Positions 1,842 through 29,280 of a stretch of DNA of 64,000 nucleotides are shown here, in pieces. Under the pieces are notes generated by a model. That model did no database searches. It was given only the letters and a program-made list of their open reading frames with translations, and was not told the DNA's origin. Positions within the stretch are counted from its first letter, which is position 1. Every line of letters starts with the position of its first letter. Made by a program: the position numbers and the translations under genes. Source of the stretch: an uncultured Chloroflexia bacterium (GTDB lineage: Bacteria > Chloroflexota > Limnocylindria > Limnocylindrales > CSP1-4); NCBI GenBank assembly GCA_963835945.1, contig CAWIHR010000054.1:8727-72726 (forward strand), given 5' to 3'.

Positions 1842-2615
1842 TCAGCCGACGAGGGCGACCTCAGGCGGCGGCGTGCGGGAGGAGGCCAGTCCAACCTCCG
1901 CGAAGATCAGGCTGGCCACGGCGGCGTCGCGGACCGCGCAGCCTGCGGGGTCGTTGTTGAAGTAGACGAAGCGGTCGGCATCCGGCGGCCACTCGGAGGC
2001 GAGCCGGCGGGCCCATGACTCGATCTCCGCGCCCGCGTAGCAGGGCCAGGGCTGGCCGAGGCCCTCGTGAAACCGCAGGTACGTCCAGTCCGCTGTCCGC
2101 CACAGCGGCGTGACCGGGCCGCGCCGGTCGGCCAGGCAGAGCGCCGCGCCGTGACGCTCGAGGACCCGCCGCACCTCGTCGACGAACCACGACGCGTGGC
2201 GGGGCTCGACGGCCACCCGCGTCCCCGCTGGAAAGGCGTCGAGCGTCGCATCGAGCGCCGCGGTGTCGCGCTCCAGCGACGGCGGGAGCTGGACCAGCAC
2301 CGGGCCGAGGTGCGAGCCGAGCCCAGTCCCCGCCTCCATGAAACGCTCGATCGGCTCGCGCGGTGCCTTGAGCCGGCGGATGTGGGTCAGGTACCGGCTC
2401 AACTTCACCGCGAAGACGAAGTCCGGCGGTGTGCGCGCCGCCCAACTCTCAAAGGTGGCACGCGACGGGAGGTGGTAGAAGCTCGCGTTGAGCTCGACGG
2501 TGGCGAAGTCGGCGGCGTAGTGCTCGAGCCAGCGCGCCGGCGCGAGCTCCCGTGGGTAGTAGCGGGCCCGCCAGTGCTGGTACTGCCAGCCCGAGGTCCC
2601 GATGAAGACCGGCAT
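1842..2615 (-). CDS. DUF72 domain protein
   Basis: IGTSGWQYxHW, TVELNASFY, LGPVLVQLPP, YLRFH and YFNND motifs. Confidence 0.95.
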   Translation of the reverse strand: MPVFIGTSGWQYQHWRARYYPRELAPARWLEHYAADFATVELNASFYHLPSRATFESWAARTPPDFVFAVKLSRYLTHIRRLKAPREPIERFMEAGTGLGSHLGPVLVQLPPSLERDTAALDATLDAFPAGTRVAVEPRHASWFVDEVRRVLERHGAALCLADRRGPVTPLWRTADWTYLRFHEGLGQPWPCYAGAEIESWARRLASEWPPDADRFVYFNNDPAGCAVRDAAVASLIFAEVGLASSRTPPPEVALVG

Positions 2616-3002
2616 CCGCCGATGCTACGGCGCTGGGGACGGCGCGCATCGAGCGACGGCCGCTCGCATGGTTCGCCTGCGGGTCTCCGGGCGGGGGCAG
2701 GGGAGCAGCCGAGCCCCGCGCGGCGGATCCAGGCTGCGGCTACGGTGCTGACGCGCCGGAAGCCGGCCTGTTGGAGGGAGATCAGGCGTGCGCGTCAGCT
2801 TCGGGCGCCAGCCTCACCCCGGGTGGCAGCCCACAAGAGGGCCGGACCGCAAGGGGCACGCTGCCGTCGCCGGTGGCCCCGCTCCACGGGTGGGCGACAA
2901 CCCCTGGCTACGGTCGTATCTCATTCCTGCCGAGTGTCTGGCCTCGGTGGGCATCGACGCGACCGCAAGGTACGGAACGCTTACAGCGCGTGTCCGTGTC
3001 CG

Positions 3003-3032
3003 TTGACACCCCCTCGCCGGCTCGCGTAGTGT
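3003..3032 (+). promoter_or_regulatory. Sigma70-type promoter for the leader-aroF transcript
   Basis: TTGACA (3003-3008), 18-nt spacer, TAGTGT (3027-3032), about 10 nt before the leader GTG. Confidence 0.65.
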
Positions 3033-3041
3033 TCGAACACC

Positions 3042-3080
3042 GTGAGAGCGTTCTTCTACTTCTACCGCGGCCCGGCATGA
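3042..3080 (+). CDS. Phe/Tyr-rich attenuator leader peptide MRAFFYFYRGPA
   Basis: GTG AGA GCG TTC TTC TAC TTC TAC CGC GGC CCG GCA TGA, directly upstream of hairpins and DAHP synthase. Confidence 0.85.
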   Translation: MRAFFYFYRGPA

Positions 3081-3123
3081 CCGCTCGGGGGTCCTGAGAC
3101 CCGAGCCGGGTCGTGCCGGGTGG

Positions 3124-3150
3124 GCAGAGGTCTGGGACCTCTGCTTTTTT
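3124..3150 (+). terminator. Intrinsic attenuator terminator
   Basis: Perfect 9-bp stem GCAGAGGTC-tgg-GACCTCTGC followed by TTTTTT. Confidence 0.9.
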
Positions 3151-3191
3151 GTTTATTCGCAGCGGGAAGCGCCAGGTGAAGGGTCGGTCGG

Positions 3192-4268
3192 ATGTTCGTG
3201 GTGATGGCCGTGGGGGCCAGCGAGGACGAGGTCAACGCCGTCAAAGCGCAGGTCCTTGCCGAGGGGCTGCACCCGCACGAGAGCCAGGGGGCTGACCGGC
3301 ACGTGATCGCCGTTGTGGGCGATGTCGGCCCGCGCAAGCAGGCCCTGATGAACCGGCTCTCCGCGCTGCCTGGCGTGGAGTCCGTGACGCCGATCACGCG
3401 GCCCTTCAAGCTCTCGAGCCGGGAGTTTCACCCCGGGGACACGGTGATCCGCGTGGGCAGCGCCATGATCGGGGACGGGTCGCTCACCGTCGTGGCCGGA
3501 CCGTGCTCAATCGAGAGCCGCGACCAACTCATGGAGACCGCGCTCGCCGTCGCTGCAGACGGCGCCACTATCCTCCGCGGGGGCGCCTTCAAACCGCGCA
3601 CCAGCCCGTACTCCTTCCAGGGGCTGGGCGTGGAGGGACTCCGTTACCTCGCCGAGGCCGGCCGCGAGACGGGGCTGCCCGTCGTCACGGAGGTCATGGA
3701 GCCCGGGCAGGTCGACATCGTCAACCGCTACGCCGACATCCTGCAGATCGGCACCCGCAACATGCAGAACTACTCGCTGTTGCAGGCGGTCGGCCGCGTC
3801 GACACCCCGGTCATGCTCAAACGCGGCTTCGGCGCCACGATTGAGGAGTGGCTGATGGCGGCCGAGTACATCGTCTCGGCCGGCAACCCGAACGTGATCC
3901 TCTGCGAGCGCGGCATCCGCACCTTCGAGACCTACACCCGGAATACCCTGGACATCTCGGCGGTGCCGCTGCTGCACCACCTGACGCACTTGCCAGTCAT
4001 CGTGGATCCATCGCATGCCACGGGCAAGCGATGGCTGGTGAAGCCGATGGCCCTGGCCGCGGTCGCCGCAGGCGCCGACGGCGTGATGGTCGAGGTGCAT
4101 CCGCGTCCTGAGACCGCGCTGTCGGACGGCGAGCAGTCGCTGACGCTGGAGCAGTTCCGCGACCTGATGCTGGCGATCCGCGCCGTTCACGGCGAGTGGG
4201 AGGCCTCCACCGGGACCCTGTCCTCGAGAGCCGCCGCGCTGGGCATCGGCGGCGGGAGCAAGCACTGA
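3192..4268 (+). CDS. aroF: 3-deoxy-7-phosphoheptulonate (DAHP) synthase, type I-beta with N-terminal regulatory domain
   Basis: [45 protein letters not shown] and DPSH motifs. Confidence 0.97.
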
Positions 4269-4569
4269 CATGGCGGCGGTCGCCATGATCACCTGTGTGG
4301 CTGCCACCATGAGTAGCAGCGGGCCGCTCCTTGGGCCTGGTCGGGGGGATCCCACTGGCAGCGTTGGTGGGTGGTCCCGCCTGACGCGGTGCTCGGCCGC
4401 CCACCGGTGCCCGGTGGCGCGGTCACGTGGTCGCCTGTCCGTGCCCCGCGGCCCGCCCCCGCAACGCGACCGATGGCCCCTGCTACTGCCCTCGCTACGG
4501 TCCTAGAATCGACCGGGCAATCCAATCACCGGACAGGAGGCCAGGCGGCACGAGTCCGCGGAGGGAGCC

Positions 4570-4986
4570 ATGGCCCAGCAGTTCATCGTGCAGCTCAAGA
4601 ACGAGCCGGGCGCGCTCGCGACCCTCGCCGAGGCGCTGGCCGCACGCGGCGTGGACCTGCGTGCGATCGGTGGCGGTGGCCTCGGGGATACGGGGCACGT
4701 GATCCTGACCACGGCCGACGACGACACCGCCCGGCGCGTCCTCGATGATGGCGGGTACACGTACTTCGAGGGTGAGTCGCTCCTGGCCGAGGTGGACGAC
4801 AAGCCGGGAGGGATGGCGAAGATCGCACGACGGCTGGCCGACGCTGGCGTGAATATCCAGGGCCACCTGTTCATCGGGCGGTGGGGGGACCGCGCCATGT
4901 TCGCCTTCGTGGTCGACGACCCGGAGAAGGCCCGGCCCGTCCTCGAGCAGGCGCGGCCACCTCAGCTGCCTGCGTCGCGGCCATGA
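4570..4986 (+). CDS. Tandem ACT-domain protein
   Basis: Two ACT repeats (KNEPGALA...GVDL; DDKPGGMA...GVNI). RBS GGAGGGAG. Confidence 0.85.
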   Translation: MAQQFIVQLKNEPGALATLAEALAARGVDLRAIGGGGLGDTGHVILTTADDDTARRVLDDGGYTYFEGESLLAEVDDKPGGMAKIARRLADAGVNIQGHLFIGRWGDRAMFAFVVDDPEKARPVLEQARPPQLPASRP

Positions 4987-5041
4987 TCCCCTCATGCTGG
5001 TCAGCCGACCAGCATGGTGACACTGGGTGGGCTGCCGCCCA

Positions 5042-12145: not shown

Positions 12146-12739
12146 TCAGGCCTGCCGGGTCGCCACCTCGAGGGCGGCCAGCACGTCGGCCGTGGAGCGC
12201 ACCCGACCGATGCGCGGGAAGATGAGGCGCACCGTGTGCGCATGCTCGCCGGCGTCCCGGGCGGTCATGGCATCCTCTACGAACACCTGCTGGTAGCCGC
12301 GCTCGTAGGCGTCACGGGCCGTGCTCTCCACGCCGATGTTGGTCGAGATGCCGGCGAGGAGGATGGTGTCGATGCCGCGGCGACGAAGCTGCAGGTCGAG
12401 CTCGGTGCCGTAGAAGGCGCCCCACTGGCGCTTGCCGATGAGGAGGTCACCCGGCTCGGGGCCGAGCTCGGGGACGATCTCGGTCCAGTCGGGGGGATGG
12501 GCCCCGGGCTGCCAGGCCGGCGTGTCGACCTGGGGGTGCAGCGCATCTTTGCCGTCCGCCGACTGCGTGCGATGGACCAGGACCACGGTGCCCCCGGCGG
12601 CCCGGAGCGCGACGGCCAGCGCCGCCGTATGCGCCGCCACGTCGCTGGCAGAGTGGGGGGCCGCCGGCACCTGCGCGATGCCCCGCTGCAGGTCGATCAC
12701 CACGAGCGCCGTTCGCGCGGGAATGAGCGTCAGGTCCAT
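12146..12739 (-). CDS. Isochorismatase-family hydrolase (YecD-like)
   Basis: ALVVIDLQ, KRQWGAFYGT and GISTNIGVESTAR. Confidence 0.92.
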   Translation of the reverse strand: MDLTLIPARTALVVIDLQRGIAQVPAAPHSASDVAAHTAALAVALRAAGGTVVLVHRTQSADGKDALHPQVDTPAWQPGAHPPDWTEIVPELGPEPGDLLIGKRQWGAFYGTELDLQLRRRGIDTILLAGISTNIGVESTARDAYERGYQQVFVEDAMTARDAGEHAHTVRLIFPRIGRVRSTADVLAALEVATRQA

Positions 12740-12889
12740 CTCGACCCTCCTCCGTTTCACTGTTGCTCGATAATCCGCACCCAGCACCAACTGCTCGGGG
12801 TGCCGCGCCTGCGCGAGGGACGCAGGGGCTGGCCTCCGGCCGCCGATGACCCTGGTGATGGGGTCTGGGCCCGCCGCGGCCATCCCGCG

Positions 12890-13183
12890 TCAGCCGCCAC
12901 GGCGATTGGCGGGGACGCGGGCGATCGGGGGCAGGTCAATGACACGCACCCCGGAGTTCGCGAGAGCCTCCGCGTGCTCGGGACATAGCCGTAGGACTCC
13001 TGCCAGCGCGCCCTCCACGCGGACCTCCCGGGCTGGCTCACCGCAGGCGTGGCCCGCCACCCGCTGCTCGCAGCCGAGCTCCTCGGGCGCCGCACGACTG
13101 ACCTGATAGCCGGCGGCCAGCACCAGGGCGAGGTGCCGTCGGCAGAGCAGGATCAGCCGGTTCCTGCGGCCCCCGGCCGCCAT
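12890..13183 (-). CDS. Hypothetical Cys/His-containing protein
   Basis: LCRRH...C...C...LCPEH pattern in a 97-aa ORF. Confidence 0.45.
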   Translation of the reverse strand: MAAGGRRNRLILLCRRHLALVLAAGYQVSRAAPEELGCEQRVAGHACGEPAREVRVEGALAGVLRLCPEHAEALANSGVRVIDLPPIARVPANRRGG

Positions 13184-13385
13184 GCCTGTGACGCGATACG
13201 GGCGCGCGGGCCACGCGCAGACCACGTGGCCACGGGCTGATACCAGGGGGTACTGGCACGCCGGCAGCCCCGGGCGGTCAGGCTGCGGCGCCCGAGCCAC
13301 CCGCCACGGGGCCCGTGAGCGGCGCGGGCGTGCCGACGAAGCATCGCCCGTCGCGCCCCTGGTCACGGCAGACCCAGGCCGAGCG

Positions 13386-13514
13386 TCAGCGCTTCTTGCC
13401 TCGGTGTGTCGCAGGCCGCACGTCCGGCGCCACCACGGTCGGGGCGACCGTCGATGCCTGCGCCGTCTTCTCCTTCTTGGATTTCTTGTCTTTCTTGGCC
13501 TTCTTCTTGGCCAT
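13386..13514 (-). CDS. 42-aa lysine-rich basic peptide
   Basis: MAKKKAKKDKKSKKEKTAQASTVAPTVVAPDVRPATHRGKKR, with GAGGGGAG RBS. Confidence 0.6.
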   Translation of the reverse strand: MAKKKAKKDKKSKKEKTAQASTVAPTVVAPDVRPATHRGKKR

Positions 13515-13766
13515 CGCACACTCCCCTCAAAGATCGCGCAGGTCTGCCACGCGTCAGGACATCAGTCTAGATGCGGTCCGTGAACGGCAGCGGTGTACTG
13601 CTGCCGGGACCGCTGCCCGCGAACTGCGCCTCGTGCCCGGACCGAGACGGCCGGCCGCCTGACCGACCGCCCGCAGGGGAATACCACTCACGGCGAGCGG
13701 GCGGACTCCCCCGATTGGAGTAGGGATCGCCTCGGGCGTCGAGCCCCCGCTCGCTCCCAGGGAACC

Positions 13767-28676: not shown

Positions 28677-29280
28677 GTGACTGAACCTCCCTGGGCGCCA
28701 CGGGTGTCCGCGGCGCGCATCCGGGTGCGCGATCGGCCGCGCACCCTAGGCTACGACGTCGCGACCGGGGTCCGGGTTCCCTGCACCGGTCGCGCTCGGG
28801 TACATCATCGTCATCCTCTCGCCTGCGCGACCCGATGGCTCAGCTCCTTGGCGTTTCGCGGGCGGCTACTTCACCTACTTCCCGGCGTTGACCAGCAGAG
28901 GTAGGGGGAGGTAGGCGGAGCTGGGCTGGCGGGCCGTCAACTGTGCCGTGCCCGTGCTCCGCCGGTTGCCATCTTCAAGCCGACCGTCGCCGGTTGGTTA
29001 GCTGCGGGCAGACACTTGACGACTGGCTCGGACCGGCGGTAGCGTGGTCTTGGACCGGATGGCCCGGTCATCGAGTCGTAAGGAGCTTACTGCGGACACC
29101 ACCTAGCCTCAAACAGTTCAGCGCATCCGATGAGCACCGCGGCGCGGCCTCCGAGGCCGACTCCGTCGGTGCTTTGTTATTCTCCGAGCGCTCGTTGAGC
29201 GCCGAGCAGATCGCTGCCGGCTGGGCGGCCTTCGGCCTCCACGAGCCAGTTAGGTTGCCGGCTGGCGAAGGGGGCGTGCG

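Follow-up and report, generated by a model that had tools for sequence, protein, structure and literature searches.

How might a Chloroflexota cell adjust transcription of aroF, its gene for 3-deoxy-7-phosphoheptulonate (DAHP) synthase, to the supply of aromatic amino acids? The question is raised by a stretch of 64,000 nucleotides (nt) from an uncultured Chloroflexia bacterium (contig CAWIHR010000054.1), referred to here as the window, in which a promoter, a 12-codon open reading frame (ORF), a long hairpin (P1) and an intrinsic terminator precede aroF. The shikimate pathway begins with DAHP synthase, and a first-pass annotation had proposed that the segment is a ribosome-mediated attenuator. 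The sensor ORF, hairpin, terminator and conservation agreed with that proposal, but the antiterminator switch it included did not. We consider it probable that the window carries here one copy of a leader-peptide transcription attenuator that is conserved in Chloroflexota and controls DAHP synthase, and we are slightly more confident that the element senses aromatic tRNAs. Comparative data make it very likely that such an attenuator is read by a ribosome. In this large and mostly uncultured phylum, it would act as the chief control on transcription for aromatic amino-acid synthesis. Its parts, in window coordinates, are as follows.

3003 to 3008, plus strand: -35 hexamer TTGACA, read in the sequence
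3009 to 3026, plus strand: promoter spacer of 18 nt, read in the sequence
3027 to 3032, plus strand: -10 hexamer TAGTGT, ending 9 nt before the GTG start codon
3042 (GTG) to 3078-3080 (TGA), plus strand: putative leader ORF MRAFFYFYRGPA plus TGA, 12 codons, translated from the sequence
3051 to 3065, plus strand: candidate sensor codons TTC TTC TAC TTC TAC (Phe Phe Tyr Phe Tyr), read in the sequence
3070 to 3121, plus strand: hairpin P1 from the minimum free energy (MFE) fold, with lower stem 3070-3082/3109-3121, upper stem 3083-3089/3100-3106 and loop 3090-3099
3077 to 3097, plus strand: putative second frame MTARGS, 6 codons, whose ATG overlaps the leader TGA (ATGA) and whose own TGA (3095-3097) lies in the apical loop of P1
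3122 to 3154, plus strand: intrinsic terminator with stem 3124-3132/3136-3144 and T-run TTTTTT at 3145-3150, then GTTT
3192 to 4268, plus strand: aroF, type I-beta DAHP synthase with an N-terminal ferredoxin-like domain, assigned by Pfam and NCBIfam

The aromatic leader and its hairpins

The first-pass annotation had described a 12-codon ORF with five consecutive Phe/Tyr codons and no Shine-Dalgarno (SD) sequence, and had held that a leader not conserved among relatives would argue against attenuation. The aroF gene was detected through its protein in 36 of 41 related genomes. An aromatic ORF of 10-13 codons, with start and stop codons kept, was present at 36 of 37 orthologous loci, as was the entire unit of TTGAC promoter, aromatic ORF, P1, GCAGAGG..CCTCTGC terminator and aroF; the 37th locus, L009, was cut by a contig end. 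Trp-bearing variants of the leader also occurred among these loci (e.g. MRTTWFYRSPAR).

Conservation of the peptide was concentrated in its aromatic residues. The fifth codon before the stop specified Phe or Tyr in all 102 distinct peptides of the order, and the three positions preceding it were aromatic in most. Within the leader core, the Phe/Tyr/Trp fraction was 0.54 in frame and 0.06 and 0.025 in the other two frames. The corresponding value for long ORFs of the source genome was 0.058; these ORFs were chosen on third-position G+C content, which biases Phe/Tyr codon preferences, so the aromatic fraction alone was used. All synonymous Phe and Tyr codons were in use across the leaders (TTC 133, TTT 136, TAC 157, TAT 45), and Phe, Tyr and Trp replaced one another while the aromatic class stayed.

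Both amino acids were nearly always represented: 105 distinct leader peptides included 104 with Phe, 104 with Tyr and 13 with Trp, and 104 of the 105 retained Phe and Tyr codons together. The strongest mutual-information pair in 98 aligned leaders linked the middle bases of the final two aromatic codons. These two codons read Tyr,Phe in 47 leaders, Phe,Tyr in 32, Trp,Phe in 9, Phe,Phe in 5 and Tyr,Tyr in none, and 88 of the 98 combined one Phe with one Tyr or Trp. From these pairing statistics we conclude that the mixture of Phe and Tyr codons is maintained. As a short ORF rich in end-product codons, the kind found in ribosome-mediated attenuators, the mini-ORF is predicted to be translated; its composition fits a leaderless or near-leaderless ORF that would read Phe- and Tyr-tRNA, and sometimes Trp-tRNA. 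Just before the UGA (window 3072-3080), x-Pro-Ala was seen in the window's order and Ser-Pro-Pro-Ala in one other class. The Pro codons might slow release and keep the hairpin open, or might simply encode the CCCGG stem.

The annotated promoter, TTGACA-18-TAGTGT, was present as described. The pattern TTGAC-17/19-NANNNT (mostly TANNNT) recurred at the corresponding position in 131 of the 132 distinct upstream regions of orthologues, with spacers of 17-19 nt and 4-14 nt from the end of the -10 element to the leader start. A sigma-70 scan with a TATAAT threshold did not list the window's promoter, because TAGTGT agrees with TATAAT at only three of six positions. No SD-like tetramer was seen upstream of the window's leader ORF, and only 9 of the 132 orthologous sequences carried one. 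Promoter spacing suggests that the leader mRNA probably has a 5' untranslated region of 0-3 nt.

The long hairpin described by the annotation (3071-3082/3109-3120 and 3083-3089/3100-3106) appeared in the MFE fold, its lower stem extending to 3070/3121. P1 alone had a folding energy of -41.4 kcal/mol in the window, with a mean of -38.9 kcal/mol over 137 leaders. The annotated 9-bp terminator at 3124-3150 was likewise recovered, conserved and covarying; its stem comprises 11 pairs from 3122 (3122-3132/3136-3146) if G-U pairs are counted, and its mean energy over the 137 leaders was -15.5 kcal/mol. A scan of positions 2000-5000 returned the stem and T6 run at 3122-3150 as the sole terminator-like site. 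The terminator thus lies between leader ORF and gene, as in ribosome-mediated attenuators. The whole leader folded at -78.7 kcal/mol (z = -3.29), and none of 200 shuffles was equally stable.

A consensus fold from a MAFFT alignment gave only the lower stem of P1, and a covariance model was therefore built for re-alignment. Among 98 leaders aligned to this model, 95.5% of cells were paired, compared with 38-54% for slid partners. Nine of 23 pairs were altered on both sides (4.6 in shuffles), and the covariation score was 0.166 against 0.102 in shuffles, a value that none of 500 shuffles attained; the alignment was fitted to the covariance model, which favours the structure. P1 had covariation support across these sequences. 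The terminator core, GCAGAGG..CCTCTGC, was invariant and its two basal pairs covaried. The alignment of aroF upstream regions that the annotation had recommended thus returned both conserved Phe/Tyr codons and covarying P1 and terminator stems.

Is the mini-ORF read at all? P1 and the terminator could instead form a protein- or ligand-controlled RNA element in which the aromatic codons are incidental. GGCAYGA..UCRUGCC in P1 and GCAGAGG..CCUCUGC in the terminator are invariant in sequence across classes while the frame over GGCAUGA varies by lineage, hinting at RNA recognition. Against this, the aromatic class survives both Phe/Tyr/Trp exchange and synonymous change, and does so in one frame only, and 36 of 37 loci keep both the start and the stop codon. 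Rfam searches, which included Phe_leader (RF01859) and Trp_leader (RF00513), returned no relevant match in window positions 2600-3600 at E up to 10, nor any in 20 related loci at E up to 1. We find an untranslated element barely credible.

Distribution of the element

A scan of one genome per species for the terminator pattern CCGGG..GCAGAGG..CCTCTGCYYYTT returned at least 119 loci. Among the pattern matches listed, a script parsed an aromatic leader at 107 of 119, one of which (L068) seems to be a chance hit. The other 12 matches in the same list comprised five that carried the element by eye, being cut by a contig end or having the ORF fused in frame to the apex stop, and seven unrelated terminators. 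This adds about 110 Limnocylindrales loci to those reached through the protein.

The covariance model was seeded with 36 sequences, and the window (104.2 bits) was in the seed and so matches by construction. Matches were found in 52 of 151 genomes of the same class (41 of 44 in family f1, 5 of 6 in f2, 0 of 49 in f3 and 5 of 50 in f4), in 43 of 151 genomes of a phylum sample and in 103 of 121 genomes of a second class; matches outside the window's own class were weaker. Without the unpublished genomes G127, G213, G355 and G365 these tallies become 51 of 150, 42 of 150 and 101 of 119. Independent members in the phylum scored 28-54 bits, and 19 of the 21 inspected precede DAHP synthase-like genes. 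The remaining two were L208, which was not parsed, and L210, which precedes a prephenate dehydrogenase gene.

L210 belongs to a set of five loci from another Chloroflexota class (with L227, L230, L237 and L240) in which the element, with leaders such as ...YAYWFYFSPPA, stands before a prephenate dehydrogenase-like gene; the gene call is from PF02153 at L210 (E = 4.5e-34) and from a GxGxxG N-terminus only at the other four. In other classes the element also precedes DAHP synthases with different N-termini. At L205 the downstream DAHP_synth_1 protein has a 61-amino-acid (aa) N-terminus without the ferredoxin-like domain, which we take to be reminiscent of type I-alpha enzymes.

Families f3 and f4 depart from the common form. 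The f4 variants (L187-L190) have a 9-codon leader, MNHPFWYYA or MNLVCWYYV, in which Phe, Trp and Tyr occur. In these variants the leader stop immediately precedes the hairpin and a second frame is absent; the terminator stem is interrupted by a central mismatch, and an additional GCAGAGG copy lies unpaired within the hairpin. In f3 (L191-L193) the leader element is absent, and aroF directly follows an ORF that, judged by eye, is AroH-type chorismate-mutase-like.

The switch between termination and read-through

Two features of the classic attenuators were found here, the mini-ORF rich in end-product codons and the terminator. The other two, an antiterminator helix made mutually exclusive with the terminator by a shared strand, and regulatory codons within the first helix, were not. 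In the window, 4 nt separate the Phe/Tyr codons from P1, and the final Tyr codon starts 7 nt ahead of the first P1 pair. Counted from the first base of the final aromatic codon, the first P1 pair lay 7-8 nt downstream in 75 of 137 leaders of the order and in 28 of 42 of other classes. Regulatory codons placed so that a stalled ribosome would block the first helix were therefore not what we observed. A ribosome reaches about 12 nt beyond its A-site codon. One stalled at the first aromatic codon just touches P1, and one stalled at the last opens a few pairs at most. With an aromatic codon 7-8 nt before P1, a stalled ribosome would thus spare most of the hairpin.

No shared-strand antiterminator was detected by truncation folds, by duplex permutation and shuffle tests or by a mutual-information scan. 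The scan, over the 98 aligned leaders, showed no notable Watson-Crick pair outside the helices. Among 23 segment pairs tested, only the P1 and terminator helices stood out, together with loop against terminator top before dereplication. When parts of the 5' leader were masked, the terminator was retained in the MFE fold throughout, save in the window's genus with 42-45 nt masked. In folds that mimicked ribosome positions the terminator core was paired at about 1.0 in every state, and only its two basal pairs shifted (0.75 versus 0.90). These results suggest that a conserved RNA antiterminator is either nonexistent or invisible to the tests used. A downward extension of P1 that would compete for the terminator base was examined and rejected: it showed no covariation (p = 0.24-0.82), and its thermodynamic effect was small.

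The first-pass annotation had envisaged a classic three-helix attenuator, in which the opened apex of P1 (3088-3101) pairs with the top of the terminator (3129-3141) and blocks it. Both strings are present, with a duplex energy of -13.2 kcal/mol in the window and -13 to -16 kcal/mol in the same genus. When the alternative structures were folded, as the annotation had suggested, this pairing displaced the terminator in the window's MFE fold with the first 42-45 nt masked, but otherwise the terminator stayed. Permutation tests of loop against terminator over all sequences, not dereplicated, gave p = 0.007 and 0.0005. After dereplication there was no covariation (p = 0.14, 0.22 and 0.32 at 90, 80 and 70% identity). 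The energy of the apex-terminator duplex matched that of a shuffled apex (-9.96 versus -9.86 kcal/mol), and 34 of 70 dereplicated leaders beat their own shuffles. The pair was absent from the mutual-information scan, and the best partners of the terminator 5' arm differed in position between genera. The fold would also require the ribosome to have passed the Phe/Tyr codons and to sit on codons 10-12 or the stop, and would then give read-through when the tRNAs are plentiful. The antiterminator as annotated was not upheld, and we consider a three-helix switch improbable.

A second possibility involves the aromatic codons as RNA. These pyrimidine-rich codons could pair with the GCAGAGG arm and extend P1, giving read-through if the leader is free of ribosomes, for example after drop-off of a stalled ribosome with a very short peptide. 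Before the 3' arm of the terminator is made, pairing of the 5' arm was 0.75 in the ribosome-free leader and 0.28-0.48 in masked states, and its partners were mostly Phe/Tyr codons. GCAGAGG is invariant across classes, and a comparable extension folds in the divergent f4 variant, where both strands differ in sequence. The pairing was, however, unspecific: self-paired, cross-paired and shuffled energies were -8.12, -8.35 and -8.12 kcal/mol, shuffled 5' tails gave 0.69 compared with 0.74, and in f4 31% of shuffles attained the observed value. The helix is also weak against a terminator of -15.5 kcal/mol, and a ribosome on the aromatic codons would cover the pairing strand, leaving the arm core paired at only about 0.1. 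We rate both this pairing and the drop-off route to a free leader as distinctly improbable.

The MFE fold of positions 3040-3195 pairs 3051-3068 with 3160-3185, a segment that contains the SD of aroF. This arrangement would allow translational control, in which the aromatic tract pairs with the SD region of aroF in the full-length mRNA and a stalled ribosome releases it. When leaders were paired with the 60 nt past the terminator, however, self energies were no better than cross energies (-13.96 versus -14.57 kcal/mol, p = 0.9975), and the distance from terminator to aroF start varied from 35 to 264 nt. Translational control would also leave a strongly conserved, canonical terminator unexplained, and we give it very little credence.

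The sole reliable difference between a stalled and a freely running ribosome is that P1 is closed in the first case and unzipped in the second. The hairpin lies directly against the terminator. Within the order, MFE folds of 137 leaders placed 0 nt between P1 and terminator in 66 and 1 nt in 31 (97 of 137), and a gap of 0-1 nt was seen in 41 of 42 parsed elements of other classes; MFE folds maximise pairing, and these gaps are lower bounds.

The leader ORF also runs into P1. Its UGA lies 8 nt inside the hairpin in the window; in the order the stop was UGA in 134 of 135 leaders, 6-13 nt inside P1. An AUG overlapped this stop in 122 of 135 unique leaders. The AUGA frame reached a stop at the P1 apex in 130 of 135 leaders, compared with 8 and 11 in the other two frames, and the putative second frame was 6 codons long in 124 leaders and 5 or 7 in six. 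Apex stops were TGA in 48, TAG in 61 and TAA in 22; UGG at the apex was noticed at a single locus, L090. In L083 and L085 of the order, and in many members of other classes, one ORF runs from the aromatic codons through to the apex stop. This arrangement of frames suggests that the second frame may be translated.

Two other frames were considered and set aside. A +1 frame open through the terminator, as a frameshift would use, was closed in several lineages, and open frames are expected by chance at such G+C content. A third frame, opening at the conserved GUG of UCGUGCC (window 3113-3295), was uninformative, as all frames are open across the terminator.

In the mechanism we propose, the mRNA would begin at or a few bases before the GUG at 3042, and the 12-codon ORF would be translated without an SD. 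With Phe- and Tyr-tRNA charged, the ribosome would enter P1 and unzip it up to the UGA, probably to the apex after re-initiation at AUGA. The 3' arm of the opened P1 would then become a flexible spacer, the terminator would fold behind RNA polymerase and most transcripts would end near 3150. With either tRNA scarce, the ribosome would stall with its front edge at the foot of P1, the hairpin would stay closed and read-through into aroF would increase. In hairpin-dependent termination the stem base forms inside the RNA exit channel, and flexible RNA is needed just upstream. A closed P1, 0-1 nt from the terminator stem, would keep the stem base out of that channel, and a ribosome stalled at the P1/terminator junction would add to the steric clash.

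We propose that closed P1 itself opposes termination because there appears to be no RNA antiterminator. The direction follows from the requirement that starvation raise expression of a biosynthetic gene, as reported for the aroR-aroF system of Corynebacterium glutamicum: closed P1 would mean read-through and opened P1 termination. Abutment, with closed P1 opposing the terminator, is offered as the physical mechanism only tentatively, with less than even expectation that it is correct. The broader claim, that attenuation proceeds without an RNA antiterminator and that the ribosome must translate into and unzip the abutting hairpin for termination, we regard as rather unlikely. If it is true, a ribosome five codons further along would be spatially farther from the terminator, inverting textbook attenuator logic, and the aromatic codons 7-8 nt before P1 would tie unzipping to charged Phe-, Tyr- and Trp-tRNA.

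Several points weigh against this account. The terminator core was paired at about 1.0 under every mask, and secondary structure alone therefore predicts no regulation. The MFE linker between P1 and terminator was 3-5 nt in 24 of 137 leaders. The second frame is absent or differently placed in part of the family (f4 and many second-class elements); some second-class elements have no second frame that stops at the P1 apex. The steric argument is a proposal drawn from general knowledge of hairpin-dependent termination, and we know of no direct precedent for a closed hairpin that sterically opposes an adjoining terminator. The transcript start, translation of both frames, termination at the T-run and the response to Phe and Tyr are all predictions from sequence. 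Pathway logic speaks for the account, as PF00793 matched only the two aroF copies of the source genome and PF01474 (class II DAHP synthase) was not found there, but this genome is 85.7% complete, so another DAHP synthase class could have escaped. Finally, the sensing of both Phe and Tyr that the annotation proposed is in keeping with the presence of both codon kinds in 104 of 105 peptides, but is not assured, as Tyr supply was without effect in C. glutamicum according to the accessible part of that report (PMC11802643).

Known attenuators and genomic setting

By analogy, the element would function like the leader-peptide attenuators trpL, pheL and hisL, and its closest functional relative appears to be aroR-aroF. 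Like pheL-pheA, pheM-pheST and trpL, it has a mini-ORF of end-product codons and, beyond that, an intrinsic terminator ahead of a biosynthetic gene; the position of the ribosome decides the outcome in those systems and would do so here. The enterobacterial leaders (pheL, pheM, trpL) have an SD, carry their regulatory codons within the 5' strand of helix 1:2 and use one terminator strand for a 2:3 antiterminator. In the Chloroflexota element, in contrast, the codons precede the hairpin, which abuts the terminator without overlapping it, and no 2:3 pairing is detectable.

Attenuators of the pyrBI/pyrE type also dispense with an RNA antiterminator: a ribosome that follows RNA polymerase closely is itself the physical obstacle to formation of the terminator hairpin. 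The proposed mechanism resembles them in that nearness of the ribosome to the terminator would block termination. The pyrBI/pyrE leader ORF reaches or crosses the terminator, whereas the ORF here ends about 45 nt upstream along the chain, and the folded hairpin alone would place a stalled ribosome beside the terminator.

The system of C. glutamicum is from another phylum (Actinomycetota), and its aroF enzyme is presumably not of the I-beta type with a ferredoxin-like domain. Its aroR leader peptide and aroF attenuator were reportedly treated by Neshat et al. (2014, J Biotechnol 190:55). In the accessible parts of later papers, aroR is a leader peptide with Phe-Tyr-Phe that attenuates the DAHP synthase gene aroF (PMC11802643, PMC4046766), and ribosome stalling increases transcription of the aroF operon under Phe limitation (PMC11802643). 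The likeness, as far as these sources describe it, is functional only: a short leader with a Phe-Tyr-Phe core before a DAHP synthase gene. The Chloroflexota element differs in showing no antiterminator and in having an ORF that enters the hairpin, aroR being compared by its description in those excerpts only.

Other C. glutamicum attenuators, such as ilvB, are described as having leader ORFs without a ribosome binding site (PMC4046766, PMC11857589). In the available text on the 'three-hairpin' attenuator of ilvBNC, the leader ORF begins one nucleotide from the transcript start, the base of the antiterminator hairpin adjoins that of the terminator and overlaps it by a GCC trinucleotide, and the third hairpin is an anti-antiterminator (PMC11857589). 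Judged from that text, ilvBNC is the nearest published idea, with a near-leaderless ORF, a long hairpin whose base adjoins the terminator base and a choice made at the junction. Compared with ilvBNC as described, boundary competition here is small (0.75 versus 0.90 for two basal pairs), and the P1 extension is without covariation.

In the first-pass annotation, such a leader was not known to have been described for a type I-beta aroF in this kind of lineage. In the literature found, which scarcely covered subscription journals, C. glutamicum aroR was the sole DAHP synthase case and nothing appeared for Limnocylindria. The element is thus undescribed for Chloroflexota in that literature, but attenuation of a DAHP synthase gene by a Phe-Tyr-Phe leader was already known from the aroR reports, as far as these were accessible. 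The kind of attenuator is known; the Chloroflexota family has no Rfam entry, and its switch departs from the canonical one. The family supplies over 200 natural variants of a single design, in which a hairpin abuts the terminator, an ORF is read into the hairpin and no antiterminator was found. If the switch works by hairpin integrity alone, it would be a new physical coupling of translation to termination and a compact part for synthetic control. Should a classical fold be hidden in it after all, the family would be just another member of the trp/phe/his class.

The gene downstream of the leader was identified as annotated, a type I-beta DAHP synthase. Its product matched PF00793 (279.7 bits, E = 2.2e-83), PF18152 (55.5 bits, E = 5.1e-15) and NCBIfam NF006421 (492.6 bits, cut-off 335), with the DAHP_synth_1 and DAHP_snth_FXD domains both represented. 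The second aroF of the source genome lies on contig C19 (about 12469-13727, locus L031) with its own putative leader (MRDRFYFYRSPA), hairpin and terminator. It shares 87% DNA identity with the window's aroF across the gene alone, with no relationship between the flanks. This second copy may be a paralogue, or may belong to a co-binned relative; assembly contamination is 4.1%.

A scan of the genome for leaders with Trp, His, Cys or Phe/Tyr runs accompanied by a promoter or terminator returned the two aroF leaders only. On the minus strand of contig C27, at about 29040-29160 in reverse-complement coordinates, a canonical terminator, one of few others in the genome, is preceded by small ORFs rich in Cys and Val and followed by a replication-initiator-like ORF. 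This combination is probably not an amino-acid attenuator. In the window, the divergent upstream gene (1842-2615, minus strand) encodes a DUF72-family protein and is separated from the leader promoter by about 390 nt, in which the ORFs have no family match. Just past aroF, a 138-aa ORF (4570-4986, plus strand) gave weak ACT-domain-family matches far below cut-offs (PRK08577, 30 bits; C-terminus of PGDH), and may encode a small regulatory-domain protein.

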